From a bacterium (GTDB taxonomy: Bacteria > Bacillota_I > Bacilli_A > RF39 > UBA660), in the NCBI GenBank assembly GCA_963588075.1, contig CAVAGO010000001.1, forward strand, positions 15,753 to 79,752: DNA of 64,000 nt, read 5' to 3'. The notes under the pieces were generated by a model. The model did no database searches. It had not been told where the DNA came from and saw only the letters and a list, made by a program, of their open reading frames with translations. Made by a program: the position numbers and the translations under genes. Shown piece after piece: positions 3,486 through 51,403 of the stretch. Every line of letters starts with the position of its first letter. The first letter of the stretch is position 1.

Positions 3486-4350
3486 AGTTGAACTTTGGCG
3501 TCAAGAAGATGCTAAAGCTCATGTTGCTAGATGTGCTAGAGTTTGTTATGGAAAAGAAACAGGTAATGATGAAGCTACTGTTAAAAGATTAATTAATAGT
3601 AAACATTGGAGTATGTTTCGTCATGAAACTGTATATGCTATGATTCCTATTGAATTATGGTATGGAAATTTTGGAGAAATTCTTAAGGGCTATAAAGCTT
3701 CTCCTTATATTTCATGGGTTACTGTTAGAGATTATATATATGTTTCTACTAATGGTAATTTTATGTTAGATATAGAAAAATATGAACCTGTTTTATATAA
3801 TGAAATTAATAATTATAGAGTTAGTGAAGAAGAATTTAATTCTTGTGAAACTGCTTATAATCTTTTTGCTCGTTGGACATTTTGTGTAGATACTCAAATT
3901 AGTACTTCTCGTGAATTAAATAGAGTTAGTCCTAATAATATTGCTGAAAAATCTACTCGTTATGTTTACGAAGATGGTACTATTTGTAGACCTCATTGGA
4001 TGAGTAATGATATAGCTAATCATTTTAATAATGAACCTATATTTGACGAATGGATTGTTAAAAATGAAGAACATAAAAAAGTTTATTTATATTATAATGC
4101 TTGTGAAAGTAGTTTTAATAAATATCACATTCTTATTGATGAATATAATATGAATCGTCAAGATGCTCGTGGTATTCTTCCTATTGATACTGCTACTCGA
4201 TGTGTTTATACATATTCCACAAAAGAATGGTTTGATATAATTAAGAAACGTGTGTATCATACCACAGGTAAAGCGCATCCTAATGCTACTATTATATGTA
4301 AACTTATAGAACAAGAATTAAATAAACTTGGATATGAAATTAAAATTTAA
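3466..4350 (+). CDS. thyX: flavin-dependent thymidylate synthase (ThyX-like)
   Basis: SRELNRVSPNNIAEKSTRYV resembles the ThyX signature SRQLVRHR..S....SQRYV. QDARGILPIDTATR resembles the downstream AR.vLP motif. A ThyX fits the crAss-like replication module. Confidence 0.65.
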   Translation: MKIIEPKVELWRQEDAKAHVARCARVCYGKETGNDEATVKRLINSKHWSMFRHETVYAMIPIELWYGNFGEILKGYKASPYISWVTVRDYIYVSTNGNFMLDIEKYEPVLYNEINNYRVSEEEFNSCETAYNLFARWTFCVDTQISTSRELNRVSPNNIAEKSTRYVYEDGTICRPHWMSNDIANHFNNEPIFDEWIVKNEEHKKVYLYYNACESSFNKYHILIDEYNMNRQDARGILPIDTATRCVYTYSTKEWFDIIKKRVYHTTGKAHPNATIICKLIEQELNKLGYEIKI

Positions 4351-4981
4351 TTTTAATAAAAGAAATAAATATAAAAATATTTGTTCTATTGAAGGATGTA
4401 ACAATAGTGCTTGTGGTAAATATTGTAATAAACATTATCATCAAATTAAAAGATATGGACATATTAAAACTCGTACACGTTTTGATAAAAATGAAATTAT
4501 TATAAATGATAATGTTGCTAAAATATTATTATATGATAATAATTGTAATGTTATAGATTATACTATTATTGATGCTGAAGATATTAATAAAATTTCCAAA
4601 TATAAAATATCTAAATGTGGAAATTATGCTTATGCTAATATTAATAATAAAAACGTTGCTTTACATAGAATTATAACAAATACTATTAATGAATTAGATA
4701 AAATTCATAATCCTATTGACCATATAAATGGTAATTGTCTTGATAATAGAAAATCTAATCTTAGAATTTGTACTATGTCTGATAATATGTATAATACATA
4801 TAGACAAAGAAATAATTCCACTGGTGTTAGAAAACATATTCAAAAAGGTAAATATATTTCTTATCAAGCGTATATTTCTATTAATAATAAACAAATAAAT
4901 CTTGGTTATTTCGATACTAAAGAAAAAGCTATTATTGCAAGAAAATTTGCAGAAAGAAAATATAATATAAATAGTTTTTAA
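4328..4981 (+). CDS. HNH homing endonuclease with C-terminal AP2 DNA-binding domain
   Basis: HNH core PIDHINGNCLDNRKSNLRICTMSDNMYN, followed by the AP2-like segment GVRKHIQKGKYISYQAYISINNKQINLGYFDTKEKAIIARKFAERKY. The N-terminus is Cys/His-rich (CSIEGCNNSACGKYCNKHYH). Confidence 0.85.
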   Translation: MDMKLKFNFNKRNKYKNICSIEGCNNSACGKYCNKHYHQIKRYGHIKTRTRFDKNEIIINDNVAKILLYDNNCNVIDYTIIDAEDINKISKYKISKCGNYAYANINNKNVALHRIITNTINELDKIHNPIDHINGNCLDNRKSNLRICTMSDNMYNTYRQRNNSTGVRKHIQKGKYISYQAYISINNKQINLGYFDTKEKAIIARKFAERKYNINSF

Positions 4982-9990: not shown

Positions 9991-10161
9991 GGAACCGCTA
10001 CGAGTGCTACGCACTCTTCGCTATACTCCCCGTAGAGGATGGAATGGTAGTTGCGCTAGTAATATTAGTATAGTTATTAATGATAATGATTATATTGATT
10101 GAATGAATACTAGTCTATTCCATCCTCCACGGGGAGTTGAGCGTAGCGAAGCGGAGCGTTC
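9991..10161. mobile_element. 171-bp element with ~45-55 nt imperfect terminal inverted repeats built on long-form GC-motif units (MITE-like or structured RNA locus)
   Basis: Left arm ggaaccgctacgagtgctacgcactcttcgcTATACTCCCCGTAGAGGATGGAAT (9991-10045). Right arm ATTCCATCCTCCACGGGGAGTtgagcgtagcgaagcggagcgttc (10117-10161). A 71-nt AT-rich spacer separates them. The inner 21 nt pair with one mismatch. The arms carry CGCTN/AGCGN pentamer tracts. Confidence 0.6.
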
Positions 10162-10465: not shown

Positions 10466-11005
10466 ATGGAATTTAATACTAAACTTAGTAAACTTATAGC
10501 TCGTAGAAAAGTTATAGAAACTAGAAAAAGACTTAATAAAATTGTTCAATCTCCTTTTGAAATAAATAATACTTTAAAAACTGTTTATCAAAATAATGTT
10601 GTAGATAATAATAAAAAATATATTATTACTAGACAAGATTATTGTAGAAATTTTGTTACTATTAATATTGATTTTATTAGTAATATGAAATATTTTGATA
10701 AAGGTGCTAATACTATATTTATACATATATGTAAAAATATAGATTTTAATTCTAATGTAATTAAATTTACCGAAAAAGATATTATTGATGAATATAGTAT
10801 TAGTGTAGAAACTTTTTATAACGGTCTTAATATATTATATAATTTTGATGTTATTAAAGCTACTACTCGTAAATCTGTTTACATAATTAATCATAATATT
10901 ATTTTTAAAGGTAGCATTGGAGATTTTATTAAAGAATATAATAAATATTATGAAAATGTTGATGTTATTATTAATGATAAAGGTAAAGTTATATTAAATA
11001 TATAA
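10466..11005 (+). CDS. RepL-like / winged-helix DNA-binding protein (tentative)
   Basis: 179-aa ORF. ...ANTIFIHICKNIDFNSNVIKFTEKDIIDEYSISVETFYNGLNILYNFDVIKAT...VYIINHNIIFKG resembles the wHTH core and the y.iNP.i.fKG tail of RepL plasmid replication proteins reported in crAssphage (from memory). Confidence 0.4.
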   Translation: MEFNTKLSKLIARRKVIETRKRLNKIVQSPFEINNTLKTVYQNNVVDNNKKYIITRQDYCRNFVTINIDFISNMKYFDKGANTIFIHICKNIDFNSNVIKFTEKDIIDEYSISVETFYNGLNILYNFDVIKATTRKSVYIINHNIIFKGSIGDFIKEYNKYYENVDVIINDKGKVILNI

Positions 11006-20400: not shown

Positions 20401-23400
20401 CTTTTGAATTTGAACTTTATTAGCAAATTTAGTCCAATCAATTTTATCTATTGGAGTATCATCTGTAAGACTTTGAATAAGTCCAGCATATTTATCTAAT
20501 TCACCAGCAGCAGTAATACGACGAATCCATTCTTCAAGAGTAATATAAGATTGAGCATCATTAACATTAACTCCACCTTTAAATGGTTCTAGTATTCGTT
20601 CTCTATCTTTTTTATCAAGTCCAGCTTTTTTAAGTTGATTATCAAGTCTATCAATAACAACTTTATCAGAAGCTTTAAAAGTATTATAAATAGTAACACC
20701 TCTAAATTTATCTTGAAGAACTACTTTTTTACGTTTAGTAACTCCATTAACAGTATAAGGAACAGTAACAGCATTATCTTTAATAGTTATATCATATAAA
20801 TCAGTAGCTATATCTAAATCATTTTTAGTAAAATCAGTATTACCAAAAGGATTACCACTAGCTTGTACTTCTTTAATACGTTTTAGAATAGTTTGACCAT
20901 TCTTATAAAAACTTTGGTCACCACCATACATATCGTACATACTATCTCTAACAAGATAATCATTAACTAGAAATTCAGCTAAAGATTCATTATTAATCTT
21001 ATCATCAATAAATGTACCATATTTATTTTTAAGTTCTTTATAACCATTAGTTATATATTCATTTAACCAATCAGCAACAGTATCTTCAAGAGCAATACGT
21101 TGTTCTCCATTAAGAACTACTTGATTATTAACATAGCTAAGTCCACGTGTAGACCCCCCGTAGAGGATGTCAATAGTCTTACTATACCCAATTAGTTCAT
21201 TAAATGCTCCATTACTATTAGGAGTAATTTTACTAACTAAACGTTTAAAACTAAATACTCTACCAGCTAAAACTTTGTGTCCATCTTTAGTAGTAAATAC
21301 ATTACCTTTTCCATCTTTATGGTATTGATTATAAAAATGTTCAGGTTTATTATTATAAGTATCACTAAATTCAAAATCTCCATTAGTTAAAATAGGATTA
21401 CCATTAGCATTAGTTTTAAACATTACATTAACAGCTTGAGCCATATTAGTAAGTTCTTGAATAGCTATATTATAATATTGTTTAAATAATGGATGTTCTC
21501 TATTTATAATTTTAGTTCCATCTTCTAGTTGACTACGTAATCCAGCAAGACTATATCTAGGAGCAGTAATAGTAAAGTTTTTAGGAGCATCACTAGGTAT
21601 GGGAAGTAAATAATTAGCAGTAGGAGTTTCAGAATTATTAATATCAGTCATAAATAATCCCATAGCAGTAATTAAATAATCACCATCACTCATACTACGA
21701 TATAAGTCATTATTGTTATTATCTAATTCGCTAATACCATTAAGAAGAGAAGTCTTAAACATACTACGAGCATATTCAGTAAGTTTAGGAGTTCCATTTC
21801 CAACTCTTCTAAATAATCCATAATTAATTATATTACCATTACTATCTCTATGTTCAAGAAGTAAATTACTATAATCATATTGATGACTAGCAAACTTTTG
21901 TCTAGCATAAGCTTCAACCATAGCGTTTTGCTCTTCGACAGTAGATTTATCATCATTAATAATTTTAGCAATATTAGTAATAAAACTTCTATTAATAACA
22001 TCAGAACTTAAATTACCTTCAGGATTACGAGAATTAAGTTCAACAGGAATATAAATAATATCTTTAAAAACATCAGCCATTTGATATATAATAGAAGTAT
22101 CACCTCTATTAATAAAACTATCAGGCATTTTAGTTCCTTTATCCTTTTTAAGCGCTTCTACATATTTATTATAATTTTCAACTGTACGATTAATAACATT
22201 AGCAAAATTAATAAGATTATTAGCCATAGCTACACGACCAATCTTAGCAATAGCTAAATTAAAACTAGCTTGATTAATATCTGGAAATATTTCTTTAAAA
22301 GCATCATATAAATAAAGATTAGCATGAGGAGTATTTTTATATCTATCATATATACGAAACTTTTCACGAGCAGTAGGAACACGATTAGTAATAATATTAT
22401 TCTTAACATTATTATAAAAAGTATTCTGTAAAATAGTACGAGAATCAGTATTAGGATTAGTTACACGAGCACGAACATAACTATTACCATTAGAATCAGT
22501 TTGAATATAAGTTTCAATTTTAGATATAATAGGTTTATTAAACACCATCATATACTTATTAGCAAATACTTTATTTTTGCTAAGTAAATCATGTAATTGA
22601 ATTAAACATTCACAATTTGGAATAGTTTCAGATATACGTTTAAGACTAGCTATAAAATTATCTACATTACTAGTATCAGCACTAGCATATAATATTTTAG
22701 ATAAATAATTAGCATCAGAAAAAGTAACAACTCCTAATTCATTATTAGTATCAAAAGGATAACTTCCATTATTAAGTTGAGAAGCAGCAGTAAGTTTAGG
22801 TAAACTTGCAAGATGATATTTAATAATTTCTTCTACGTGTTTATTAAAATCTTTAACTTCACCAATACTTAAATTCCAAAGTTGAGTCATTAAATCAATA
22901 CCATCATCTATACTATTTTCATCACCTTCAGTAGAAGTTTCATCAAGATAACCGCCTAATTCTTCATAATCAGTAGTTTGATATAACTCATCTCGTTTAA
23001 TAAGTTTAGCTACATTTTTATTATTAAAAAGAGCTTCATTAAATTCAGTATTAGTTAAAGAACGAAGTAATGCTCCATAATTAAAATCTTTAGCATCACC
23101 ATATTTACGAAGAAATGCTCCAAGACCATTAATTTTAATAGCAGGACTTGGATTATTAATAAAACTATTAAGTTCATTATTTTTAACTTCATCACTTCCG
23201 GCTAATTTCTTAGCACGTTTAAGTCCAGCATTAATAACAGTTTCATTAGTACGTTTTTTAATTTCATTAAAATTTAATGGAGCACCATTATATAGAAAAT
23301 TAAAACTAAGTTTGTTCATAATATCAGCCATATAAGTAATAGCTGTATCTCTAGCTTTAATTGTACTAAACAAACCACGTTCTTCTTTTTCAGCAACAGA

Positions 23401-23764: not shown

Positions 23765-26700
23765 CTACATACAGCTAAAACTGATACGTCCTGTGTCAAG
23801 CAAAGTGGCAAATTCGGGCTGTTGTGCTATTGGCAAACGGCTAGTCAATTCAGCCATATTCACCACTATATCATCATCAACACTACTAAACATATCAAGT
23901 CCATCATTAAGATTATCATTATTATAATTATAATCTTGACTATTATCTTCATTAGGATTTTCAGTTTGTTCTGTACTAACAGTTTCTTCTTCAAATTGAA
24001 AAGTTTCTTGAATAGCTTCTTGATTACTTTCTTTAGGCATTTTTTTAATAGCTTTATAAGCATCTCTAGCAGCAGCTAATAAACTATCTTCATTAATCTT
24101 AATACCTAACATATCAGCAATAACTTCAAGAAGTTTACTAAATAAAGTCTTACGTTTATTAACTTTTCTATTATCATATTTAATTTCATTAAGTGCAGTC
24201 ATAAGAGCATTACTAGTAATACTTTCAACTAGAAATTCTTCAAGAGCTTCACTTGTATTAAAGTTCTCAAATAGATAAGGTTTAAGTCTTTCTTTAGTAG
24301 CATCATCTTGAGTATCAAGCCAAGCTTTAAATTTATCATATATAGGTTTAACTAAAGCAAGAGCTTGTTCAGTATTATATTTAGTATAAAGTTGTCTATG
24401 TAAACTTTCATGAAGTATAATATTAACAACTCGATAAACTCTTTGATCAGCAATAGCAGAACGATTAAGCTCAATAGTATCTGTATCACGATGATAAACA
24501 GCATTAACTTGATTACCATTATTATCAGTAATACTATTTACAACTTGAATATTTTTAGGTAAAATATCAATCTTTTGAAGAGAATCAATATAATCAAGAG
24601 CAGTTTGATCATTAGCAAAATACTTTTTAAGTCCACGAGTTAAATTCTTAGCAGTTATAGCAGATTCAAAAGAATTAAAATTAATAGCATTAAGAGTATC
24701 ATCTAACATGAACTCTGATAGCTGTTCAGGTATTGCTCCATCCTCCACGGGGGGTCTACCCTCAAGTTCATAAGTAATATCGAGTTTAGAATGAATATCT
24801 ATTTGCCAATTACCAGCAGTTTCATTAGTATTAGTATTAGCTAATTTAGTTCGAACTAAACCATTACTAATAATAAAATCTTGATAACTATTATAACTAT
24901 AAGTTTTACCATCAATATTTATAATAGTTTTACCATTTTCACGATAAATATATTTATTAGTTTTATCATTAGTTTTTGTACTATCATTAATAAAATCTTT
25001 ACTAATAGCAAATTGAGCATAGTTAAACATTTCATCAATAACAGGACGAAGAGCATTATCTAATTCGTCAATAGTATTAGCATTAATGCCATAACTTTTA
25101 CCTATTTTAAAAGCACTATTAACAACATAAGGAGAATTAATAATAATATTACGTTTATAATTACCAGCATCAGAATTAATAGTAAAAGCATAATCTTTAC
25201 CATTAAAATGTGCACCTTTAACATAAAAGCCTATATTAGTAGGATTAATACTAATTTGAAGTCCAGTATTTCTATCTCCGTTAATAAGTTTATTATTTCC
25301 AAATATATCTCCAAGACTTTGTTTAAGTTCACCAAAACTTATTTTACCACTAATATAATCTTTACAAAGATTATTAACTTCATTCTTAATAGAATTAATA
25401 ATACGTCGAGCATCACCTTTAAGTAGATTACTATTTAATGGAACTTGTTTACAAAAAGCATATAGAGAAGTACCATCACTACTTGGAATACTAATAACAG
25501 GCATACCATTAGTAGTAAGATTTTCAATAATAGTAGGTTTACTTTCTCCATTAAGATATAATTGACCTTGTACAACTACACCAAGTTTATTAATATCTTC
25601 GTTATAATTAACTACTGTTTCTTGTACATCATTCCATTCACCATTAGTATCATCAATAGTATTAAGAACTCCATATTTAACGTTAACAGCTTTAACTTTA
25701 CCTTTAAAATCACCTTTAACTATTGTAATAGCTTGATCATAACTATTAAGAAGATTATTAAACCAACGATTAATACTAGCTTCATGACTATTTTCATAAG
25801 GTTGATTAAATATATATTTAGTAAGATTAACAAGATGTCCAGCTAAATCAAAACTTGCAACAGGAGTAGTAAAATCTCTAACTATATCAGGATATTTAGT
25901 TTCAAATTCTTTAAATAGATTAACAAGTTCTTCTTGTGTAACTTCTTCTTTAACAGCAAGTTCATATAAATGACCAATAAATTCTTCGTCAAATCTATCG
26001 CCATCAAGAATACTAATTAAAGCATCTTTAAGCGGAGAAACAACTTGACCATTTTCAGCATGAATATTATATTTCCAACCTTGATTAATCATATCATAGT
26101 TACCAAACTTATCAATATTTGGAACTCCTATATAACCAATAATTGTATCATTAGCAAATATATCAATACGTTTAAGTTTAACATTATATATAGCTTCTAA
26201 ATAATCACCTTGTTTAATACTAGTAAATGCTTTAACATTTTCATTCTCTACTATATACTTAAGATTAACATTATTAGTATGTTCAACTTGAAGTCTTTCA
26301 AGACGTTCTTTAGCAATACCATCAACATATTGAACAAATTGTCTAGCATTAAGTTTTTTAATAGTTGATTCGTCAGTAGCACGATATTTACCTTGATTAT
26401 TAGTGCTGGCGTAAAGATAGTTTTTTATTTGATTAAACAAGTAATTTTTAATAATTTTATTACCTGTAATACTATCTATATATTCAACTAATTGACCAAT
26501 ACTAAGATATACTTTACCATTAACAATTTTACCTCTAGTATTACCTTCACTATCAACACTATTAGCAAAATCATTCATAACAGCTTCTATATTACGTTCA
26601 TTACCTGTAACAGTAGCATAAGTAGCATTAAGTAATAAACGTCTAGTACTATCATCTTGAACAGAACTATATAAACTACCACCTGTAAGACCATCAATAA

Positions 26701-29635
26701 TATTATTAACTATATCGCTAGCTTCTGTTTGTTCAAATCCAGCTTGACTAAGTTTATCAATAAAAGACTGTCTAGCATTAAGTAAATCACTACTAGTAGA
26801 TTCATGCCCAAGAGAATCTTCTAAATCAGCAATACTTTCATAAACTAAATCAGTACCTATTTGACCACGTTCGAAATCATCATCTGGAAGAGTATTATTA
26901 ACTTCAGGTTTAGGAGTGCTAATAGGTTCTTGAGAAACTGGTTGTTCAGTTTGAGATTGAGGTTGTTCAGTATTAGTAGGCTCACTAGGAACCGCTTCGC
27001 TTCGCTCCGCTATACTCCCCGTGGAGGATGGAGATGAGTTAGTATCATCTACATCAGTTTCATTAACTTCATTAACATCAGGATTAACAGGAGCAACTTC
27101 TTCTTTAGGAGTATTATTAACATCATTTTCAATTTCTGCAATTTCAGCTAATTGTTCTAATGTAGTTTTAAGATGTTCATTACCTTTAGAACTTAAATCA
27201 AGTGCAGCATAAGCATTTCTAATAACTTTATCTATATTAGGTTTATTACCATTATTAGCATCTTTAATAACAGAATTAACATAATCTTTTCCATATTGTT
27301 TATAAGCATTACGTAAATCGTCCATAGCTTTATTAACAATCTTTTTACGACTATTATCAAAGAAGTTATTAAGATAAGTTATACGAGATTTAATATTATC
27401 ATCAGATAAATTAAGTTGATTTTTATTAACCTCAACATTAATCTCAGCATTAACAACTTCTGCTAAATCTTTAAATACTTCATTATATTGTTTTTGAAGT
27501 TGAATAGCTGATTGAATATCATTTTTATTTTCAATATCAATAGGAGTATAAAGTTTATTAATAGCATCTAGACGTTCATTTAATTGAGCAATACGTTCTT
27601 GCTTAACAGAATCATTAATTGCTGCATTATCTTGAATAGTTTTAATATCTCTTTGAATACTATTAATAATATGTTGATAAATACCATTCTTAGCAGAATT
27701 AATATCAACATCTTCAATATGATTATTTGTAATATCTTGATTTAAAACATCATTAGCCCAATTAAGAAGATTATTATAATTTTCTTGGCGATTACGAGCA
27801 TGAACCATTTGGGTAGCTATAATACGACCAACTTCAAATCCACCACCAAGTCTATTAACTTTATTTAAAGTAGTATTATATTCATTTTTAAGATTATTAA
27901 TTTCAGTTTTAAATCTATTAATAAGTTCATTACTATCTTGTTGTTGTAATCCAAGTTTATTAGTAATACTATCATTAAATTCTTTACTATTAATAGAACT
28001 TTCAAGAAGTCCTAAATTACCAGCGTTCATAGAATTAATAATAATATTATCCATATATTCTTTTTCAGCTATACTACGAAGTTCTTCTTCAGTACCAGTA
28101 ATAATATCTGGATTAACCTGTTGACCATTTTCATCAGTAATAGTTATAAATGGATTTTTACCATTAGCAATACTATTAAGTCTTTCTTGATATGCTTGAA
28201 AAGTAGCAGTACGACCAAGAATTTCATTTTCTCTTTGTTTTTCAGCAGAAGTCCAATCTTTATCAAGACGTTTATTAATAAACTCTCCAGCTTTATTCAT
28301 AACACTACTAAAAGTAACACCACCAAGAGCACCCCAAAATGCTTGTTCCCACAACATTGGGTCTTGAAGATAATCTTTAATAGTTTGTTGAGGAATATCT
28401 TTATCAAATACTTTTTTACCATTATATAAACCATCTTGACTAGCTATATAATTAATAGCTTCTTCAACTCCTTCTGTCCATTCGGCTCTAACACCATGAA
28501 GAATATCATCACCTACATCTTTTAATGTGCTAGTAATAGCTTGTTTAGTAGTTTTATTACTTAAAGCATTAGTAATTGCAGCGGCATCATCAATATTACT
28601 ATTAAATGCAGTATTTAAATTTCTAAGTCTAGAACTAGTTATATTACCACTTAAAGCATTTTTCCATAAGTTCTTTAAACTATAAACTTGCCATACGTCA
28701 AAAAGAACATTAGCCCAATCTTCAGCAAAAGTAATATCAGCACTATTTTTAGCAATATCTTTAGCTACTTCTTCATCAGACATATCTTTATATTTAGGAT
28801 TATTATTATAAAACTCTTCTCTTTGTTTATCATTCATATTAGCAAGTTGAGTTTTAGAATAATCTTCAATATCATTATAAGTTTGTCTAGCTTCTTGATA
28901 ATTTTCAAGATAACGAGAAGGAACTCCAATAGCAGTAGCTTCTGCTATTCTACTAGTAATTGCTCTACTCTTTTGCGTCATATTAATAACATTAGCCATT
29001 TTATTAGCTAATTTATTAAACTTTATACCTTTACCTAATAAAGAAACACCTTTAGCAAGACCAGTACTAGGAATCATAAGAGTTAAAGAACTAGCTATAC
29101 TAGGAGCATTGCTAGCCCACCAAGCAAAATCTCCAATATCAAAAGCAGCATTAGGATTTTCTCTATATATAGCTAAACGTTCATTAATAGATTCTTTTAA
29201 AGATTCAAGTTCAGAACTTATTTCAGATTGATAATCATTAGGACTATTACTAACCATATTATAAAAAGCATCAGCTAAATCAGCAAAACCAATAGCTGTT
29301 CCAACAGTAATCTCATTACCAATTTGCCCAATCATTCTTAATCCTTGTTCCCAATTACTTTGATTAACAGCACGTTCTTTATCAAGTTTTTCTGGGTCAT
29401 CAACAGGATTAACATAAACATCATAAGGAGCATATTTATCTATATCATATTGATTAAGATTATATGATTGTCCAGCAATACGACCAAATAAACGACCACG
29501 ACCCTGGTCACTAATAGAAGTGCCAGGGTTGTAATCAACTAAAGTAGGAGGCTGTATAGCCCCCTTTTTAGTTTTAGGATTATATTTAGGATTAGGTGTT
29601 TTATTACCACCTTGTAGAAACTTTAATACATCCAT
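23765..29635 (-). CDS. large virion/ejection protein with C-terminal HExxH (zincin-like) motif, 1956 aa
   Basis: Uninterrupted 5.9-kb ORF with NIILHESLHRQLY (HESLH at 24398-24412, about residue 1742). A central acidic, Pro/Gln-rich linker carries a long-form GC-motif copy. Confidence 0.75.
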   Translation of the reverse strand: MDVLKFLQGGNKTPNPKYNPKTKKGAIQPPTLVDYNPGTSISDQGRGRLFGRIAGQSYNLNQYDIDKYAPYDVYVNPVDDPEKLDKERAVNQSNWEQGLRMIGQIGNEITVGTAIGFADLADAFYNMVSNSPNDYQSEISSELESLKESINERLAIYRENPNAAFDIGDFAWWASNAPSIASSLTLMIPSTGLAKGVSLLGKGIKFNKLANKMANVINMTQKSRAITSRIAEATAIGVPSRYLENYQEARQTYNDIEDYSKTQLANMNDKQREEFYNNNPKYKDMSDEEVAKDIAKNSADITFAEDWANVLFDVWQVYSLKNLWKNALSGNITSSRLRNLNTAFNSNIDDAAAITNALSNKTTKQAITSTLKDVGDDILHGVRAEWTEGVEEAINYIASQDGLYNGKKVFDKDIPQQTIKDYLQDPMLWEQAFWGALGGVTFSSVMNKAGEFINKRLDKDWTSAEKQRENEILGRTATFQAYQERLNSIANGKNPFITITDENGQQVNPDIITGTEEELRSIAEKEYMDNIIINSMNAGNLGLLESSINSKEFNDSITNKLGLQQQDSNELINRFKTEINNLKNEYNTTLNKVNRLGGGFEVGRIIATQMVHARNRQENYNNLLNWANDVLNQDITNNHIEDVDINSAKNGIYQHIINSIQRDIKTIQDNAAINDSVKQERIAQLNERLDAINKLYTPIDIENKNDIQSAIQLQKQYNEVFKDLAEVVNAEINVEVNKNQLNLSDDNIKSRITYLNNFFDNSRKKIVNKAMDDLRNAYKQYGKDYVNSVIKDANNGNKPNIDKVIRNAYAALDLSSKGNEHLKTTLEQLAEIAEIENDVNNTPKEEVAPVNPDVNEVNETDVDDTNSSPSSTGSIAERSEAVPSEPTNTEQPQSQTEQPVSQEPISTPKPEVNNTLPDDDFERGQIGTDLVYESIADLEDSLGHESTSSDLLNARQSFIDKLSQAGFEQTEASDIVNNIIDGLTGGSLYSSVQDDSTRRLLLNATYATVTGNERNIEAVMNDFANSVDSEGNTRGKIVNGKVYLSIGQLVEYIDSITGNKIIKNYLFNQIKNYLYASTNNQGKYRATDESTIKKLNARQFVQYVDGIAKERLERLQVEHTNNVNLKYIVENENVKAFTSIKQGDYLEAIYNVKLKRIDIFANDTIIGYIGVPNIDKFGNYDMINQGWKYNIHAENGQVVSPLKDALISILDGDRFDEEFIGHLYELAVKEEVTQEELVNLFKEFETKYPDIVRDFTTPVASFDLAGHLVNLTKYIFNQPYENSHEASINRWFNNLLNSYDQAITIVKGDFKGKVKAVNVKYGVLNTIDDTNGEWNDVQETVVNYNEDINKLGVVVQGQLYLNGESKPTIIENLTTNGMPVISIPSSDGTSLYAFCKQVPLNSNLLKGDARRIINSIKNEVNNLCKDYISGKISFGELKQSLGDIFGNNKLINGDRNTGLQISINPTNIGFYVKGAHFNGKDYAFTINSDAGNYKRNIIINSPYVVNSAFKIGKSYGINANTIDELDNALRPVIDEMFNYAQFAISKDFINDSTKTNDKTNKYIYRENGKTIINIDGKTYSYNSYQDFIISNGLVRTKLANTNTNETAGNWQIDIHSKLDITYELEGRPPVEDGAIPEQLSEFMLDDTLNAINFNSFESAITAKNLTRGLKKYFANDQTALDYIDSLQKIDILPKNIQVVNSITDNNGNQVNAVYHRDTDTIELNRSAIADQRVYRVVNIILHESLHRQLYTKYNTEQALALVKPIYDKFKAWLDTQDDATKERLKPYLFENFNTSEALEEFLVESITSNALMTALNEIKYDNRKVNKRKTLFSKLLEVIADMLGIKINEDSLLAAARDAYKAIKKMPKESNQEAIQETFQFEEETVSTEQTENPNEDNSQDYNYNNDNLNDGLDMFSSVDDDIVVNMAELTSRLPIAQQPEFATLLDTGRISFSCM
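24735..24760 (-). repeat. GC-motif copy, G-type
   Basis: gctccatcctccacggggggtctacc, read as GRPPVEDGA in the 1956-aa CDS. Confidence 0.9.
26988..27034 (+). repeat. GC-motif copy, long form, G-type
   Basis: ggaac cgctt cgctt cgctc cgcta tACTCCCCGTGGAGGATGGAGat. About 80% identical to the reverse complement of the right arm of the 9991-10161 element. Read as SSPSSTGSIAERSEAVP. Confidence 0.9.
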
Positions 29636-32210: not shown

Positions 32211-34786
32211 GATTGTTTTCCTCCAAGTTTTCTACGTTTACGAATAATAAATTCATCATAATCAACTCCAGCATCCCGCATAATTCTATCATCTACATTA
32301 GGAGCAGATGCTATCATAGCACCAATAGTATTATTTAAAGCTTTACGATTTTCATATCTACTAATCATATCTTGAATACCAGCATTAATTCCACTAAATA
32401 AATTATTAATATTAGTTACTTTAGCTTCTCTAATACCATTATCAAATGCTGCTTTTCTATCTATATATTGATTGTATTGTTGAGCATTAAATTGACGTAC
32501 ACTCTGTTGATTACGTCTATCTTGATTAATAAGATTAGTTTCGATATTTTCTTTTTCACCATAAAGTTGATTAACAGCTTGACCAGCAGCATTGCGAACT
32601 CTTTGTTTACGAGCTAAACCTACACGACTACTAGCAGTATTAGAGTCAATATCTCGATAAGCTTCAAATTTATCTTCTCTAATTCTATCAAGTTGAGGAT
32701 TAATATTATATTTAGTTTTAAGTTTACTAGCACTAATAAGAGTAGGCTGTCCCGGACCTCTCATTTTATTAATAGCTCTTTTACTAGCAAAATAACTAGC
32801 TAAACTACCAGCTACATTACTACCTAGTCCAATCCAATCAGCAATAGTAAGATTTTTAAATTTACCTTGACCTTTACCATCGGAAGATGTAGTTCCTTTA
32901 GCAGGTGTACTAGTAGAAACAGGTAAAGTAGTTGGAATATTAGCTTCTACTTTAGGTAGATTGCGATTATAAACAGCAATTGGAGGTGTTTTAGTAGGAA
33001 CAGATTGAGTTGATTGACTTGACTTACTTCGTCCTCCACGGGGGGTCTTCCCACTAGATTTAGTTTTAGATAAACTTGGAATATTAGTATTATTTGTACC
33101 AATACCTCTATTATTTCCATGACTCCAACCGGCTCTAACTAAACCACTAGTAATTCCAGCACCATCTTCAAATAAAGGAAGTCTACGTTCTGCATAATAT
33201 TGAGGACGACGATTACCATTATCAATATTAGATTTATTAGTATTAGTATTTACATTATTATTTGTAATACTATTTTTAGACCATCTTCCATTTCTAAAAG
33301 TATAATCACTACCAACAATAGTTTCTCCTCTAGCAGATTTATTAATAGGATAAGCAGAAGTTCTATTAATAGTTCTATTAGTTATAGGAACATAAGCTCC
33401 AATTTTTTCATCATATTCCCAAGTTCTTCCATGGCGATTAATACGTTTTCCGCCAACAGCAAATTTATCGCGTAGACCCCCCGTAGAGGATGAAGAATGA
33501 ATTAATCCATTCTTAACATTACCATTAATACTAATAACTAATCCAGTATTACCTTTTTTTCTAAGTTCTGGATATTTATTATAAACTTTAGCTTTAACAT
33601 CATTTCTACCATGTAATCCAGCTAATCTTAAAGCGTCAACAGCATCAGCTTTAGTAGGAATAGGATAACTTCTATGTCCACCAGCAAAATCTTTTTTAGC
33701 TACACTAGGATAAGGTTTCTTTTTAGAACCATAATCTTTATCTCTACTTAATCCACCCATAGCTTTTTTATTTTTATTTATATTATTTTTATTTATATAA
33801 TCAATAGTTCTAGAAAGATTACTACCATGTTTACCGATAGTTGTTCTATAAACTTCTTTAATACCTTGATTAATCCAAGTATTATCAATTTTATTAGCTA
33901 AATCATAAATCTTTTGTCTACCTAAATTAATAAAATTAGTAGCAGTTCTACCTATTCTAGAAACTTTAGTTAAACCTTTAATAAATTTATAATTTCTATT
34001 ACCAGCTATTGTAGGATAACCACCAATAATTATCGAACCACTTTCAGCGATTTGTCTTTTATATTCATCAGGTGCTTGATAAATTTTGCCACCTTCTTTA
34101 TATTTAGTTCCATCATCATTAATTCTATTTCTATCTTTAAAATCTTCTTGAGCTTTAAATACTTTATTAGGATTAGCTCCACCCATAACTAATTGAGCAG
34201 GACTAGCACCGTTAAGAATAGGTTGTGCAGAATAAACTTTAAGTTCATTTCCATTAGTTTCAACTACTTCACCATCTTCTACTTCAATACCAGTTTTATC
34301 ACTAGGACCAATATCAATACCACCTTGACTATGTTTTCTTCCATTCATATAAAAGAAATTATTACCAAGAGGTTGAGCAATACCACCAGCAACTACATTT
34401 GGTATTTTACCACCAACAGCATATTGTTTTTGAGGAAGATTTTTTCCATTACTTCTAGGAGTTTGAATAATATTAAATGGAAATGTTGGTCCAAGTTCAT
34501 CATCACTAGGAAAAGATTCTTTATTAAAATCTTTAACATAATTAATAAGTCTACCAGCAGTATTATTCATTAATTTTTCTCTATTATCTTTAGATACTAA
34601 ATTGTTTATACCATTATAGAGAAATTCATTACCGAGTCTTATTAAACCAGTAGATTTAGCAACTTTATCATAAGCTCCACCAAGTGGAGGAATACCATTT
34701 TGAATAAATCTTCCATTACTAGTAACATTACCTCTAAACGTACTAGGTAAATTACTTATATGAATAACTTTATCTTTTCTAGGCAT
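32201..34786 (-). CDS. large virion structural/ejection protein, 861 aa, Gly/Asn/Lys-rich (function unknown)
   Basis: Uninterrupted ORF preceded by conserved module copy C. It contains an inverted pair of GC-motif copies. Confidence 0.75.
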   Translation of the reverse strand: MPRKDKVIHISNLPSTFRGNVTSNGRFIQNGIPPLGGAYDKVAKSTGLIRLGNEFLYNGINNLVSKDNREKLMNNTAGRLINYVKDFNKESFPSDDELGPTFPFNIIQTPRSNGKNLPQKQYAVGGKIPNVVAGGIAQPLGNNFFYMNGRKHSQGGIDIGPSDKTGIEVEDGEVVETNGNELKVYSAQPILNGASPAQLVMGGANPNKVFKAQEDFKDRNRINDDGTKYKEGGKIYQAPDEYKRQIAESGSIIIGGYPTIAGNRNYKFIKGLTKVSRIGRTATNFINLGRQKIYDLANKIDNTWINQGIKEVYRTTIGKHGSNLSRTIDYINKNNINKNKKAMGGLSRDKDYGSKKKPYPSVAKKDFAGGHRSYPIPTKADAVDALRLAGLHGRNDVKAKVYNKYPELRKKGNTGLVISINGNVKNGLIHSSSSTGGLRDKFAVGGKRINRHGRTWEYDEKIGAYVPITNRTINRTSAYPINKSARGETIVGSDYTFRNGRWSKNSITNNNVNTNTNKSNIDNGNRRPQYYAERRLPLFEDGAGITSGLVRAGWSHGNNRGIGTNNTNIPSLSKTKSSGKTPRGGRSKSSQSTQSVPTKTPPIAVYNRNLPKVEANIPTTLPVSTSTPAKGTTSSDGKGQGKFKNLTIADWIGLGSNVAGSLASYFASKRAINKMRGPGQPTLISASKLKTKYNINPQLDRIREDKFEAYRDIDSNTASSRVGLARKQRVRNAAGQAVNQLYGEKENIETNLINQDRRNQQSVRQFNAQQYNQYIDRKAAFDNGIREAKVTNINNLFSGINAGIQDMISRYENRKALNNTIGAMIASAPNVDDRIMRDAGVDYDEFIIRKRRKLGGKQSCR
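33030..33051 (-). repeat. GC-motif copy, G-type
   Basis: cgtcctccacggggggtcttcc, read as GKTPRGGRS. Confidence 0.9.
33472..33494 (+). repeat. GC-motif copy, A-type
   Basis: gtagaccccccgtagaggatgaa, read as SSSSTGGLR. Confidence 0.9.
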
Positions 34787-40211: not shown

Positions 40212-41108
40212 TTATTTAGGAAAAGTAAAGTTATAAAAGAACTCATTCCAACCACTATCATCATCACTTTGTTCATCTAATAAAATACTAGTCTTAATAT
40301 CTTTCTTCATACTCTCCCATAGATAGAAAGGATTAGTTCCATATTGACTAGCAGAAAGATTAAACACAGGATGTTTATATCCTCTCATAAGCATACGAGC
40401 CATACAATAATAAGTAAGACCTTGAATTAATTTACCATTAGCAGGTATAACAGGAATTTCACAATGATAATTATCACTATATTGAGTTTCAACATCTTTA
40501 TAAACAACTGTTATACAAGTATCATTAAAATTAAGTTCAATAGTATTACCTCCAATAAGAATATAATTATGATTTGACTTATCATATCCTCCACGAGGGG
40601 TCTGACAATGAGAATGAACTTCATGCTGACATCTTAGACATTCAGTATTATTATGAACTGTATAAACAACAGGATTACATCCTACTTTACCAGTATCAAT
40701 AACTTCTCTAGTTCTAGAACCATTAGGACAACAATCATCGGGCATACCAAGATAGTCTTTATTAGTAGCACGCTCCGGACTTTCGTCCTCCGCTTGACCC
40801 CCCGTAGAGGATGGAGCAGATTCAGTATCACCACATCTATATTTACTAGTATCAGCTCTAGGTACTTCACAACCATTACTATCATATACTTTAAGACCGT
40901 CATCAATAAGACAACATTTACTTTTAGCTATCTTATTAATGACGGTTAGTTTCATTTTCTTATCAACTTTACGAAGAACTTTAAGTTCATTCATAGCATC
41001 AACACACCAAGCAGGAACTCTAGGAATCCAATCACTTCCATCAGGATTGAAATCATTATCAAGTTTACCAATTATATGTTCTATCGTAATCGTTTTATTA
41101 TTTGCCAT
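40212..41108 (-). CDS. structural-module protein with Cys/His-rich insert, 298 aa
   Basis: ATG at 41106-41108 (MANNKTITIEH) is chosen because the upstream 40 codons overlap the preceding gene. A Cys/His-rich segment (7 Cys) is bounded by two GC-motif copies. Confidence 0.65.
   Translation of the reverse strand: MANNKTITIEHIIGKLDNDFNPDGSDWIPRVPAWCVDAMNELKVLRKVDKKMKLTVINKIAKSKCCLIDDGLKVYDSNGCEVPRADTSKYRCGDTESAPSSTGGQAEDESPERATNKDYLGMPDDCCPNGSRTREVIDTGKVGCNPVVYTVHNNTECLRCQHEVHSHCQTPRGGYDKSNHNYILIGGNTIELNFNDTCITVVYKDVETQYSDNYHCEIPVIPANGKLIQGLTYYCMARMLMRGYKHPVFNLSASQYGTNPFYLWESMKKDIKTSILLDEQSDDDSGWNEFFYNFTFPK
40585..40606 (-). repeat. GC-motif copy, G-type with 1 mismatch
   Basis: tatcctccacgaggggtctgac, read as QTPRGGYD. 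Confidence 0.8.
40768..40818 (+). repeat. GC-motif copy, long form, A-type
   Basis: gcACGCTCCGgactttcgtcctccgcttgaCCCCCCGTAGAGGATGGAGCA. It starts with the same ACGCTCCG as the reverse complement of the 10117-10161 arm. Read as SAPSSTGGQAEDESPERA. Confidence 0.85.
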
Positions 41109-41112
41109 AATA

Positions 41113-42075
41113 TTAGTTTTTATATCTAGTTTTATTACCATTATTATGTGCTCCACGTTCATACTTTTGTTGATTAACATTTCTAATATATTTAAATGGA
41201 GCATTAGGTTCTCGTTCAAGATAAACAAGAAGTTTACTTCTTAATCCTAATTTAAGATTAAAAATATCATCAACAGTTTTACATTCAGAATTAAGTTGTT
41301 TAGCATCTTTACCTCTAAGTTCTCTATTAATATAATTAGCATACTTAAATTTAATAGCACTATAACTATGAGTTCCATTATTAATAAGTTGTATTTCATA
41401 AAACTCTTTATTAGTTTTATAAACTACATAAGGAATACCATCATACTTAAGTCCACGAATTTTATATATTTCTGCTTCTTCTTTATCATAAGGTTTAAGA
41501 CCAGCATCAATAATTTCTTGTTTTTTAAGTCTAGTAGCGTTCCAATCAACATAAGTATCTCTAGGTTTATCTCTATATCTCCAGAAATTAATAACTAAAT
41601 CACCAATTTCATATTTAAAATGATAAGCGTAGCCTTCAAGAACACATTTATGAACACCATAACTATAATACCTATGAATGTACTTTTTATAATCAGAAAG
41701 ACTTAATTCAGAACGTCTTGTAGCAAGTTTAAGAGCAATAATATAATCGTTTGCTTTTTTAGCTAAATTACAATAACGCAAAAGTTGGAGAAGAACAATA
41801 CGTCTTTCTCCAACTGTATAACTAAGTTGATTATTAATTAATTGCTCTAACTTATTAATTAATTCAACATTATCATTAAGAAATTGAAACCCATATTCAT
41901 TAAGATTAATTTTTAAATCATCTTTAATAACTTGATTTTTACTTTTAATATAAGCACGACAATCAGCTTTCATCTTATTTATAAGTTCAAGTTCTTTATT
42001 ATATTTTGCCATATCGTCATTAGAAGTTTCAATAAACTTTTTATAATAATGACTAATATCTATATCTTTAATCAT
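41113..42075 (-). CDS. hypothetical structural-module protein, 320 aa
   Basis: Uninterrupted ORF, tightly packed with its neighbours. Confidence 0.7.
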   Translation of the reverse strand: MIKDIDISHYYKKFIETSNDDMAKYNKELELINKMKADCRAYIKSKNQVIKDDLKINLNEYGFQFLNDNVELINKLEQLINNQLSYTVGERRIVLLQLLRYCNLAKKANDYIIALKLATRRSELSLSDYKKYIHRYYSYGVHKCVLEGYAYHFKYEIGDLVINFWRYRDKPRDTYVDWNATRLKKQEIIDAGLKPYDKEEAEIYKIRGLKYDGIPYVVYKTNKEFYEIQLINNGTHSYSAIKFKYANYINRELRGKDAKQLNSECKTVDDIFNLKLGLRSKLLVYLEREPNAPFKYIRNVNQQKYERGAHNNGNKTRYKN

Positions 42076-42078
42076 AAT

Positions 42079-42801
42079 TTATCTAGTTACAAAATTATCA
42101 ATAGGAGTTTCATTTGTTTGACGAGGAACTTCAATAAGATTACGTTTAAATACAATCTCTTTAAGAGCTCCAATCATATCTTCAGGAATAAGAAATTCAT
42201 CATCATCGTATTTAGCTTCATCATCAATAGGGTCATAATTTACATCTTTAGCTTTTTCAACAGTTTCGGTAGGAACAAGATAAGGAATTTCAAATGGAGA
42301 TTCAATAATAATAGAACCTATATTTTGAAACCAATCTTTATTATTACTAAAGAAATAAATGTAACCATTAATATAATCATAAACAGGAAGATTACACATA
42401 CCTGCAAGATAATGATAAAACTTAGCACTAGCTTCTTTTGCAAATGGTATTTCTATCCCAGTATGTCCGGTAGTTCTAATTGATTGGAAAGGTAAGTTAT
42501 TAATAAGTCTAACTGGCTTTGGAACTTCTTGTTTAGTACGTTTAATTGCAGGAAGCCCAAGAGTTTGACTATTATATAAGTCACCATCAGGAACATTAAT
42601 AATAGAAACACGAATACGTTGCTGAATACCTTTATCAACATATTTATGATTTTCATAACTTTTACGAATTAGTTCATTACGACCATGAAGAATAGCATAT
42701 CGAAGATTACGTCTAAGAGGAATACTATTAGGATTGCCAACAGCATGAGCAAATTCACTAACTAATTGATTAAGACTAGCCATATTAAGATTGACTTGCA
42801 T
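42079..42801 (-). CDS. hypothetical structural-module protein, 240 aa
   Basis: Uninterrupted ORF whose start overlaps the upstream gene's end. Confidence 0.7.
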   Translation of the reverse strand: MQVNLNMASLNQLVSEFAHAVGNPNSIPLRRNLRYAILHGRNELIRKSYENHKYVDKGIQQRIRVSIINVPDGDLYNSQTLGLPAIKRTKQEVPKPVRLINNLPFQSIRTTGHTGIEIPFAKEASAKFYHYLAGMCNLPVYDYINGYIYFFSNNKDWFQNIGSIIIESPFEIPYLVPTETVEKAKDVNYDPIDDEAKYDDDEFLIPEDMIGALKEIVFKRNLIEVPRQTNETPIDNFVTR

Positions 42802-49718: not shown

Positions 49719-51403
49719 TATTCATCAATAATATTATAAGTCATTCCAGCAACCGGGGTAATAGTTGCATATTGGGTAGCAGTTCCTGTCCAAATTGGAA
49801 GACTAAGTTTATTATTATTTGCACTAGGCATAGTCATATTAACTCCACATCCATCATTAATAGCTTTTTGAATTTTATCAAGATTAACACTATTAGTAAT
49901 AGTTTGATTTATTTCTTCTTTAAAGTTATTAAATGTATCATTAGTAACATACCCATTAAGTAAATTATTAACTTCTTCTTTATTATAAGTTTCAGATTTA
50001 GTATAATAATTTTTAAGTAAGTTATTAATTTCTTGTTTAGTATAACTATCAAATGAAGAAGTATCCCCCATTACTCTCCATTCATTACCATTCCAATAAC
50101 AAATCTTTCCATTACGATATTCAATCTGACCTTTAGCCCAATTACTACAAGTTACATTAGGAAGATATTCAGACTCTTGACCTATCATACCAGCAAGTTT
50201 ACAACCGTTTAAATCAATAGTACCATTTTCAATAATACCACCTTCAAATACAAGTTCACAACCAACAGGCATTGTAATAGTTTTACCACTTAAATCAAAA
50301 GCATAACGAATAATATAACGAGTATTTTCTTCGTTAAGCATATCTTGAGTAAGAACAGCTTTATAATTAAGATAAATATTATTCTTAACTTGAACTAAAG
50401 TTTCTTCATTAAAATAATATTTAATATTATCTACTGAATTAACATATATAATACCAAGTCTTGGACGTTCATCAGAAAGACAAGTATTATAAATATTATA
50501 ATCTTCACTATTTCCATAAACAGGAGTGTTGACCCCCCGTAGAGGATGAACTCTATCAGTAGGTTCTACAATAGTCCATCTAGTATAATAATTATAAAAA
50601 CCAACTCCATCATGAATAGTCTTAACTCTAAGAACAAATAATTTATGATAAGTATCATAATAAATACCAGCAGTATTACCTAAATCTGTTCTAATAACTT
50701 CATATTTATCAGTATTAAGAATTATTTGACCATATTGTTCACAATAAGTATCATCAAGAAAACCATCAAATAAAAGCTGTTCTGCATTACTTGCATCATC
50801 CTCCACGGGGAGTAAGACCTTGCGAACTATTTTATATCCTTTACCACTTTTATATTCAGGCTCATAAGGTCTATCTTTAAGACTAAGACGATTAACATTA
50901 CAACAACCAGGACTTAATCTAAGAGTAATATCTTCTTCGTCAGGATAATTAATAATATTAACTTTACCATTTCCTGCAATCATTTGTTTAAGAGCTTCAT
51001 TAAGCATATTCCAATCAATAGTTCCATCAGCAATTGGAATCTTAGCACCATTCTCTTCAAGATACTTCTCACTAAGAATTTTAGTCCAATTATCATCAGA
51101 AACCCAACTAGTTTCAACTCCAGCTTGAAGATTACTACCTATATAACTTTCAGTTATAGATAGATTATGTTCAGCATCATAATAACTAATAGTAAGACTA
51201 TTACGTCTAAATATAGCAGGTACAGCTTTACGAGTGTTAACTCTAGTTCCTTGATATGGAATCCATAAATGATTAAACCTAGATAGAACAACAGTTAAAT
51301 TATTGTTTGTATCTTTATCAAGAATATTTTGAAGATAAGTAATAGGAAATACTTTATCATAATTATTCTGACTTAGTTTTTCATATAATTGTTTATCATT
51401 CAT
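49718..51403 (-). CDS. tail fibre/spike-like protein
   Basis: The C-terminus LPIWTGTATQYATITPVAGMTYNIIDE shares a W.GTATQYA.I...TY.I tail with the 54741..55517 product. Heptad-like YTKQEINNLLKNYYTKSETYNKEEVNNLL. The ATG at 51401-51403 (MNDKQLYEKL) is preferred over 51499. Confidence 0.65.
   Translation of the reverse strand: MNDKQLYEKLSQNNYDKVFPITYLQNILDKDTNNNLTVVLSRFNHLWIPYQGTRVNTRKAVPAIFRRNSLTISYYDAEHNLSITESYIGSNLQAGVETSWVSDDNWTKILSEKYLEENGAKIPIADGTIDWNMLNEALKQMIAGNGKVNIINYPDEEDITLRLSPGCCNVNRLSLKDRPYEPEYKSGKGYKIVRKVLLPVEDDASNAEQLLFDGFLDDTYCEQYGQIILNTDKYEVIRTDLGNTAGIYYDTYHKLFVLRVKTIHDGVGFYNYYTRWTIVEPTDRVHPLRGVNTPVYGNSEDYNIYNTCLSDERPRLGIIYVNSVDNIKYYFNEETLVQVKNNIYLNYKAVLTQDMLNEENTRYIIRYAFDLSGKTITMPVGCELVFEGGIIENGTIDLNGCKLAGMIGQESEYLPNVTCSNWAKGQIEYRNGKICYWNGNEWRVMGDTSSFDSYTKQEINNLLKNYYTKSETYNKEEVNNLLNGYVTNDTFNNFKEEINQTITNSVNLDKIQKAINDGCGVNMTMPSANNNKLSLPIWTGTATQYATITPVAGMTYNIIDE
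50528..50551 (+). repeat. GC-motif copy, A-type
   Basis: gttgaccccccgtagaggatgaac, read as VHPLRGVNT. Confidence 0.9.
50794..50816 (-). repeat. GC-motif copy, G-type
   Basis: catcatcctccacggggagtaag, read as LLPVEDDA. Confidence 0.9.

Follow-up and report, generated by a model that had tools for sequence, protein, structure and literature searches.

The gp45 locus and its 47-nucleotide unit

We analyzed a 64,000-nucleotide (nt) stretch of DNA (the window), which corresponds to positions 15753-79752 of a 97,134-bp contig (CAVAGO010000001.1, hereafter C1). The contig is a complete genome of the prototype crAssphage (Carjivirus communis), ∼97% identical to BK010471.1. Our subject is a GC-rich 47-nt unit that lies in frame within the long open reading frame (ORF) gp45, together with the family of repeated boxes to which this unit belongs. 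The features at the locus are as follows.

23765-29635, minus strand: gp45 ORF (KP06_gp45) of 1956 amino acids (aa), annotated "RNAP-associated protein fused to zincin protease" (RNAP, RNA polymerase)
26988-27034, plus strand (the motif strand, antisense to gp45): 47-nt long-form unit, reading GGAACCGCTTCGCTTCGCTCCGCTATACTCCCCGTGGAGGATGGAGA
27014-27032, plus strand: core box A-CTCCCCGTGGAGGATGGA, with 0 mismatches to the family core
26993-27011, plus strand: CGCT-box extension, with CGCT at 26993, 26998, 27003, and 27008

Read on the gp45 strand, the unit is SSPSSTGSIAERSEAVP (aa 867-883), in which the core box gives Ser-Ser-Thr-Gly-Ser (TCC TCC ACG GGG AGT) and the extension encodes (I)AERSEA. 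The original prediction had recognized a 47-nt unit at this place, and the string it quoted covers 46 of the 47 bases at 26988-27034. It had also described the surrounding linker as acidic and Pro/Gln-rich, which is borne out by the composition: gp45 aa 781-960, within which lies the linker that contains the unit (∼aa 835-925), has 21% Asp + Glu, 7% Pro, and 18% Ser + Thr, as against 14%, 2-3%, and 11-12%, respectively, in the rest of the protein. The ORF is open across the unit (translation table 11), and the unit is in frame with a continuous peptide in all strains; a translational bypass element (e.g., T4 gene 60 or mitochondrial byps) was rejected because the unit has no frame break or stop. 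No family match to gp45 was found in Pfam or PHROG searches, and no promoter or terminator signal at the site rose above shuffle expectation. In the phage genome, which is 29% GC, the box units form GC-rich islands.

A family of boxes with a modular long form

We defined the box family by the core A-CYCCCCGTRGAGGA, with an optional (TGGAG) tail and at most two mismatches; the 18-nt core CYCCCCGTRGAGGATGGA is always preceded by A. The window holds 19 core matches, compared with 0 in 100 shuffles, and the 97-kb phage contig holds 30, where none would be expected by chance. Two thirds of these copies (20/30) are genic; they occur in both orientations, use five of the six frames, and are translated as PPVEDG, TPRGG, (A/S)PSSTGG, SILYGGS, or VHPLRGV, while the intergenic copies usually begin 11-18 nt past a stop codon. 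Since one nucleotide word yields many peptides and is also found between genes, the repeated entity is the DNA and not the peptide.

A host-derived repeat was considered and rejected, as the remaining 162 contigs of the bin (C2-C163; an unrelated bacterial bin of 2.2 Mb with 28% GC) have 0 copies and a 17-mer scan of 185,579 species genomes gave multi-copy matches only on mis-binned crAssphage contigs. The phage contig was probably co-binned with the bacterial metagenome-assembled genome through similar composition, and this binning should not be taken as a host assignment. Contigs of crAssphage with multiple box matches were also seen inside several public assemblies labeled "Clostridia", "Mycoplasma", and "Chitinophaga".

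Seven Carjivirus copies are long forms, with the layout CGCT-(N)C, stem-loop, T(N)CGCT, 3-6 nt, and core. For the family as a whole, we called a copy a long form when two CGCT boxes bracket a stem-loop located 3-11 nt 5' of the core on the motif strand. The gp45 unit has this arrangement at 26993-27011, as do six other Carjivirus copies and copies in Jahgtovirus and Fohxhuevirus; it is a long-form member of the box family. The window copies with which it was compared are listed below.

10005-10045, plus strand: left arm of an intergenic inverted pair, long form with hairpin GAGTGC-TAC-GCACTC
10117-10161, minus strand: right arm of the same pair, the closest relative of the unit (GC-TTC-GC variant), upstream of the RepL gene at 10466-11005
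40768-40818, plus strand: long form in the gp50 (tail tubular/adaptor) gene, antisense, with hairpin GGAC-TTTC-GTCC
24737-24754, minus strand: second gp45 box, in sense orientation, read as PPVEDG (aa 1628)

The unit had been proposed to be about 80% identical to the reverse complement of the 10117-10161 arm. The similarity is real and the figure was too low: the identity is 40/44 (91%), and 90% over 40 ungapped nt. One nucleotide module does occur both as non-coding DNA, in this intergenic arm, and as translated sequence, in the gp45 linker, as had been claimed; likewise, the second long form at 40768-40818 does share ACGCTCCG with the 10161 arm. Chance similarity between GC-rich low-complexity sequences, which the original prediction named as the finding that would undo it, does not explain the match, given that 0 of 5000 mono- and dinucleotide shuffles reached the score of the full unit. 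The extension alone is identical to the 10161 arm at 21/25 positions (P ~2e-4 versus dinucleotide shuffles); when compared with random (CGCTN)4 tracts, however, its similarity is not above expectation (P = 0.68). The N positions therefore add no similarity; what the extensions have in common is the arrangement of CGCT boxes, set at a constant distance from the core.

The extension, which had been described as a (CGCTN)4 pentamer tract, does have the CGCT repeats, but it is more aptly seen as a minimal hairpin, GC-TTC-GC (26999-27005), with a CGCT box on each side; the periodicity arises because this is the CGCT hairpin module in its shortest form. The minimal GC/GC stem is that of the unit and of the 10161 arm. 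The other long forms have a 4-7-bp stem at the hairpin position, each of a different sequence; stems found in long forms include GAGTGC/GCACTC, GGCAC/GTGCC, GGAC/GTCC, GAGC/GCTC, and AGCC/GGCT. The phage has nine closely spaced CGCT..CGCT pairs, of which six are within long forms (five directly abut the core and the sixth, at C1 93763-93776, belongs to the extension in the 93728 long form); the CGCT-box arrangement is thus not random. Inverted pairs of long forms stand upstream of both RepL genes (window 10005-10161 before 10466-11005; C1 93618-93740 before 94004), an arrangement that we noted when comparing the boxes with iterons (clustered direct repeats at an origin, beside the initiator gene); ∼26 boxes, including the gp45 unit, are dispersed outside the RepL-linked pairs. 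The unit itself has no terminal inverted repeats, being a single arm whose nearest inverted partner is 2.3 kb away in gp45, and no target-site duplication flanking it was seen in the window sequence or in the strain segments.

Conservation among C. communis strains

An inserted element of 45-48 nt that is absent from orthologous linkers, as the original prediction implied, is contradicted by the strain comparison. The unit is present in every C. communis strain examined, i.e., in all 20 linker segments from IMG/VR (85-99% aa identity) and in 9/9 further genomes. Nearly all its variation falls at the Y and R positions of the family and at one A/G site in the CGCT tract. Its nucleotide diversity is 0.043, compared with 0.09-0.11 in the 60 nt on either side, and at third codon positions the values are 0.034 in the unit and 0.106 in the flanks. 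The same pattern was observed across the family: among 30 boxes in 10 strains (90-96% identical), 273 of the 276 covered instances are kept (15-nt core, ≤2 mismatches), and, with the two dimorphic positions set aside, the core has a diversity of 0.036, against a genome mean of 0.068 and 0.09-0.15 in the adjacent flanks (P = 0.0015).

Some positions and loci depart from this picture. The R position (GTA versus GTG; core position 9, e.g., window 27023) is hypervariable, and its nucleotide diversity of 0.20 is threefold the genome mean. Any given locus may have A in some C. communis strains and G in others, whereas A is fixed in other genera; on the plus strand, the position is mostly A in plus copies and G in minus copies. 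The sole box locus that is not fixed is at C1 66285-66302 (window 50533-50550) in the tail protein gp63, where strains G001, G003, and G007, which have a divergent allele around the site, carry either a replaced box or none. In strain G008 (locus L022), an ancestry breakpoint lies in the unit, between the last divergent-type site (offset +18) and the first common-type site (offset +47). No inversion between inverted boxes was found in nine strains at eight pairs.

Conservation across Intestiviridae genera

In each of the 10 Intestiviridae genomes examined, a variant of the box word ranked first among the GC-rich k-mers, mostly with ∼25-30 copies per genome (11-17 in Whopevirus, Wotdevirus, and Hacihdavirus). 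Delmidovirus cr110_1 and cr11_1 have 26 exact copies each of CCCCGTAGAGGA. The corresponding words are CCCCTGTAGAGG in Rudgehvirus, TCCCCCGTAAAGG and TCCCCCATAGAGG in Jahgtovirus, CTGGCCCGTAAAGGG in Whopevirus, CTCCCCCGTAGAAGG in Wotdevirus and Hacihdavirus, and GCCGCCCCGTAAA in Fohxhuevirus. The genomes of Steigviridae, Suoliviridae, and Crevaviridae that we examined do not have the Intestiviridae box word and have other over-represented words. Among these, we noticed CGCCCTTGTGGCCA-type 12-mers in Crevaviridae cr127_1 (9-10 copies) and CTCCAGAAG-type words in Steigviridae crAss001 (12-13 copies).

The orthologous linkers, for which absence of the unit had been proposed as a check, carry the core at the same position and in the same orientation and frame in Delmidovirus, Jahgtovirus, and Whopevirus. 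The antisense box in the SSTG frame is at aa 870 in Carjivirus and in both Delmidovirus species, at aa 944 in Jahgtovirus (crAss002 and cr107_1), and at aa 969 in Whopevirus; these boxes are 7-23 alignment columns apart, between the same conserved blocks, even though the Delmidovirus gp45 orthologs are just 31% identical to that of Carjivirus. In Jahgtovirus (crAss002 and cr107_1), CCTCGTCGCTTCGCTCCTCG adjoins the gp45-linker core as an extension of the CGCT type, and the 11-mer CGCTTCGCTCC and the RSEA peptide are common to the Jahgtovirus and Carjivirus sites. Delmidovirus cr11_1 has CGCT-TCATTAAT-CGCT at 11 nt from its gp45-linker core, which we read as a probable decayed long form; by our rough estimate, a CGCT pair would be at this site by chance with a probability of ∼0.02. 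The gp45-linker copy is old, and its distribution is indicative that it predates the split of Crudevirinae and Churivirinae. A recent insertion of the unit is ruled out by the strain and cross-genus comparisons.

Conservation of position was not confined to gp45. Other copies are at the matching residue and in the same orientation in orthologs, i.e., in polB (aa 405/405), SNF2 (aa 163/164), gp44 (LPVED), gp50 (both boxes), the primase-like protein, and the 140-aa protein beside the terminase. A strict automatic count gave six shared sites between Carjivirus and cr110_1 and six between Carjivirus and crAss002, where we would roughly estimate, as opposed to compute, ∼0.1 by chance. At the shared sites, the core identity is 93% (cr110_1) or 77% (crAss002), with flanks at 37-42% or 21-33%, respectively. 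At the primase and gp50 sites, the box is read in different frames in the two genera.

Codon use, spacing, and orientation

The core box is written in codons that these phages rarely use. In C. communis, ACG makes up 2.5% of the Thr codons and GGG 2.1% of the Gly codons, and only 7 of the 109 Thr-Gly dipeptides are encoded by ACGGGG. Thr-Gly at the gp45 site is encoded as ACG-GGG in five genera, across which ACG accounts for 1.5-4.1% of Thr codons and GGG for 1.3-3.5% of Gly codons, which gives a joint probability of ~3e-4 to 1.4e-3 per genome. The retention of this rare pair in five genera indicates that selection is on the DNA and not on the peptide; the constraint is at the nucleotide level. 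In the 10 genomes, 165 of the 240 boxes are in coding sequences (CDS), and their frames are skewed: 60 of 95 antisense copies are read as SSTG and 60 of 70 sense copies as PPVED, and none of the genic boxes uses the frame containing TAG.

The boxes are regularly spaced on each strand. In C1, the coefficient of variation (CV) of the spacing of merged box loci is 0.45, compared with 0.83 for random placement (P = 0.001), with a like trend in most genomes. The 18 plus-strand copies of C1 are spaced with a CV of 0.33 (none of 3000 random placements was as even) and the minus-strand copies with a CV of 0.54 (P = 0.025); per-strand evenness reaches P ≤ 0.01 on at least one strand in 7/10 genomes. 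Orientations alternate more than expected in 10/10 genomes, with individual P values from 0.007 to 0.43. The plus-strand neighbors of the unit are the following.

21154-21171, plus strand: preceding box, in gp44, 5861 nt upstream of the core of the unit
33477-33494, plus strand: next box, in gp47, 6462 nt downstream of the core of the unit

The boxes have no polarity with respect to transcription: there is no sense/antisense bias (80 sense versus 103 antisense copies), and the polarity of long forms (6 sense versus 12 antisense) is not significant. Together, gp44 and gp45 leave 18.2 kb without a break in the coding sequence, so that a signal which has to recur on each strand at intervals of a few kb must fall inside these genes.

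A proposed DNA signal written into genes

With moderate confidence, we propose that the unit is a long-form copy of a strand-specific, cis-acting DNA signal that is kept at the nucleotide level even inside genes, and we infer that the box is read on the DNA, strand-specifically, by a sequence-specific factor. Such a box would be required every few kb on both strands and would therefore be written into the disordered acidic linker of gp45, in the frame that gives a harmless peptide, SSTG(S/G/E); selection would act on the nucleotides while the protein merely tolerates the box. The CGCT-bracketed mini-hairpin beside the core would be an optional accessory module of the signal, and the covariation of the long-form hairpin speaks for recognition by structure, on DNA that is single-stranded or extruded. 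The box may serve as a nick site, a priming signal for a DnaG-type primase on single-stranded templates, a site of packaging or organization, or a Chi-like site of nuclease attenuation or recombination, which would suit a circularly permuted genome with random ends. The crAss002 genome is predicted to be circularly permuted (PMC10136315).

Several observations weigh against this proposal. In the 1.2-kb segment around the unit, 36% of the 47-nt windows are as conserved as the unit, and ∼60% of the CDS copies that can be aligned occupy positions not common to the genera, which implies that boxes turn over. Related genomes resemble one another in even spacing and in box position, which makes their individual P values non-independent, and the samples of strains and genera are small and phylogenetically correlated. 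Folded as DNA, the 47-nt unit gives -5.4 and -6.2 kcal/mol (z = 0.11 and -0.27), which is not better than shuffles. IHF-like proteins of the phage were considered as readers and set aside, as gp52 matches the Pfam family CrAss_Ring_2, a tail ring protein.

The other readings that we weighed have to account for the same conservation. A selfish miniature mobile element (a GC cluster, a miniature inverted-repeat transposable element (MITE), or a Rickettsia palindromic element) that was inserted in frame and is translated because it is harmless would explain a GC-rich island in a 29% GC genome and copies in both orientations and in tolerant frames. Inverted pairs look like terminal inverted repeats, every lineage has its own variant common to all its copies, and some lineage-specific copies coincide with insertions of 3-13 aa relative to the ortholog (gp73, gp44 aa 3691). 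Such an element is nevertheless unlikely, as presence/absence polymorphism is not seen (273/276 instances kept in 10 strains, 21/21 at the gp45 locus) and no target-site duplication is evident. The phage contig has no transposase, neither an IS200 type nor a REP-associated tyrosine transposase (RAYT; REP, repetitive extragenic palindromic), the matches to PF01797 being only on the bacterial contig C39. In addition, site, orientation, and frame are kept across subfamilies in proteins that are ∼30% identical, with cores at 77-93% and flanks at 21-42% identity, and neutral DNA could not have persisted for that long. The regular spacing on each strand would also not be expected of it. Spacing, together with the alternation of orientations, is likewise left unexplained if the boxes are identity islands for crossover between co-infecting diverged phages, i.e., module linkers carried by recombinants. 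The switch of ancestry from divergent to common type inside the unit in strain G008/L022, the hypervariable surroundings of the boxes, and the RecT encoded by the phage speak for crossover, as does four-gamete incompatibility in 7 of 28 box intervals where 4.0-4.7 were expected. This excess, however, is not significant (P = 0.09-0.18), and recurrent mutation at the R and Y positions inflates it; inferred breakpoints gather in conserved stretches anyway, and second-order selection is weak. We regard such linkers as a quite improbable explanation.

A role at the level of RNA, as a structured element of the gp45 mRNA or as the target of a phage small RNA from an intergenic copy, appears still less probable to us. 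When the complement of the motif strand is read, a CCUCY-ACG(G)-GGRG hairpin is retained in all four Y/R variants via G-U pairs, the long-form stems covary, and in C1 the unpaired long forms are antisense to local transcription in 4/4 cases. On the other hand, sense and antisense copies are near equal in number (80 versus 103) and the long-form excess (6 versus 12) is not significant, all Delmidovirus copies are the A variant, which is unable to form the hairpin in sense transcripts, and the folding energies are not better than those of shuffles; moreover, Rfam gave no match in the window at gathering thresholds. The peptide (SSTG...ERSEA) could itself be the conserved feature, e.g., as a protease-cleavage or modification site of gp45, a protein annotated with a predicted zincin protease. 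Several genera indeed have SSTG(S/G/E) at the linker site, with RSEA after it in Carjivirus and Jahgtovirus. We strongly disfavor this possibility and consider it very improbable, as identical nucleotides encode PPVED, TPRGG, ILYGG, and HPLRG elsewhere and occur between genes, and Thr-Gly is kept as ACG-GGG in five genera despite a codon use of 1.3-4.1%. The best reading is that of a DNA signal; the mobile-element, RNA-level, and protein-motif readings fit less well.

Tentatively, and with rather more doubt than confidence, we extend the DNA-signal proposal to the whole family: Intestiviridae would carry a previously undescribed genome "punctuation" made of two interleaved strand-specific series of boxes, each recurring every 5-8 kb and maintained against codon usage inside essential genes since the origin of the family, with a dedicated putative reader. 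The punctuation box would be ∼15 nt, optionally with the CGCT-bracketed hairpin, and its possible roles are programmed nicking or priming, or the attenuation of nucleases that enter from DNA ends. Other families of Crassvirales may use the same logic with different words. The motif is not described in the full-text literature that we searched, including the 2020 preprint on the virion RNA polymerase (vRNAP) and the 2023 review of Crassvirales.

crAssphage is the most abundant known human gut virus, and its replication, packaging, and host are poorly understood; a signal that overrides codon usage in virion and replication genes would mark an essential step of its life cycle. The box is a lineage-diagnostic word for Intestiviridae, and it explains the odd rare-codon islands and the "SSTGG/PPVED" peptides in proteins of this family. 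Caution should be exercised during annotation, and such GC-rich islands should not be recorded as insertions or mobile cassettes.

Other features of the window

Apart from the boxes, a few features of the window deserve mention. The two genes at window 42079-42801 and 41113-42075, both on the minus strand, are annotated in BK010471 as "IHF subunit histone-like proteins" (gp51/gp52), labels that are probably misnomers, as the 240-aa product of gp52 matches CrAss_Ring_2 (tail ring protein 2) with E = 1e-56. At 4328-4981 (plus strand), after the ThyX gene of the C1 strain, there is a 217-aa ORF with an HNH_3 endonuclease domain; the reference annotation has only two small hypothetical ORFs at the ThyX-adjacent site and, instead, an intron-borne HNH in the dUTPase gene, which points to a strain-specific content of homing endonucleases. 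Two tail-gene ORFs contain in-frame tandem repeats: a 696-aa tail-fibre ORF has 75-nt periodic tandem repeats (at least nine copies; 56320-57166), and a 1083-aa BACON-domain ORF has four repeats of ∼318 nt (52299-53384).

Comparison with known repeats and signal words

Several classes of known repeats resemble the boxes in part. Rickettsia palindromic elements and the GC clusters of yeast and fungal mitochondria are, like the unit, GC-rich modules in AT-rich genomes that are in frame and translated, but they are mobile, polymorphic insertions of ∼30-150 nt, whereas the unit is fixed, positionally conserved across subfamilies, and constrained at the nucleotide level. For a MITE or mobile GC cluster, one would look for occupied and empty sites and for terminal inverted repeats with target-site duplications; we found 21/21 segments and 9/9 genomes occupied, and neither repeats nor duplications at the unit. 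The REP sequences and bacterial interspersed mosaic elements (BIMEs) resemble the boxes in that they are GC-rich and dispersed, carry a GTAG tetranucleotide, contain hairpin modules, and often stand as inverted pairs immediately downstream of genes. REPs, however, are extragenic palindromes mobilized or maintained by RAYTs, while two thirds of the boxes are genic and the short form is not a palindrome. We rejected a REP/BIME assignment on three counts, i.e., the genic location (20/30 in CDS), the absence from C1 of a RAYT (Y1 transposase, PF01797), and the lack of a stable palindrome (z = 0.11, -0.27).

Chi sites, which are recognized by RecBCD/AddAB, are strand-specific like the boxes and are needed in both orientations to protect DNA that is entered from either end. 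AGCGG is the Chi word of B. subtilis and GAAGCGG that of S. aureus, and the long-form extension contains both. Unlike the boxes, Chi words are 5-8 nt long, depend on the enzyme of the host, and are enriched in the genome of the host, whereas the box is ∼15 nt, differs from one phage genus to another, and was multi-copy in none of the bacterial genomes scanned (17-mer). A further difference is that the phage encodes a Gam-like inhibitor, according to its annotation. The nick motifs of phage T5, phiKMV-like phages, and tf are another close parallel, as they are long, strand-specific, GC-containing words that number a few to tens per genome and also occur in genes. The nicks of T5 and phiKMV are few and on one strand only; we know of no conservation of nick positions across subfamilies in T5 or phiKMV-like phages and of no demonstration of nicks in crAss-like virion DNA.

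The DNA uptake sequences (DUS) of Neisseriaceae, the uptake signal sequences (USS) of Pasteurellaceae, and the highly iterated palindrome HIP1 of cyanobacteria are, like the box, short over-represented words that occur in both orientations and, where genic, in the least harmful frames; they are often found as inverted pairs downstream of genes, and they have lineage "dialects". DUS and USS differ from the box in having hundreds to thousands of copies in cellular genomes and in being taken up via a known receptor, while the crAss box is a viral word of ∼30 copies, with even spacing along each strand and conserved positions in orthologous proteins. In essence, the box behaves more like words of the DUS/USS/HIP1 type and phage nick motifs, which it resembles, than like a REP or a MITE.

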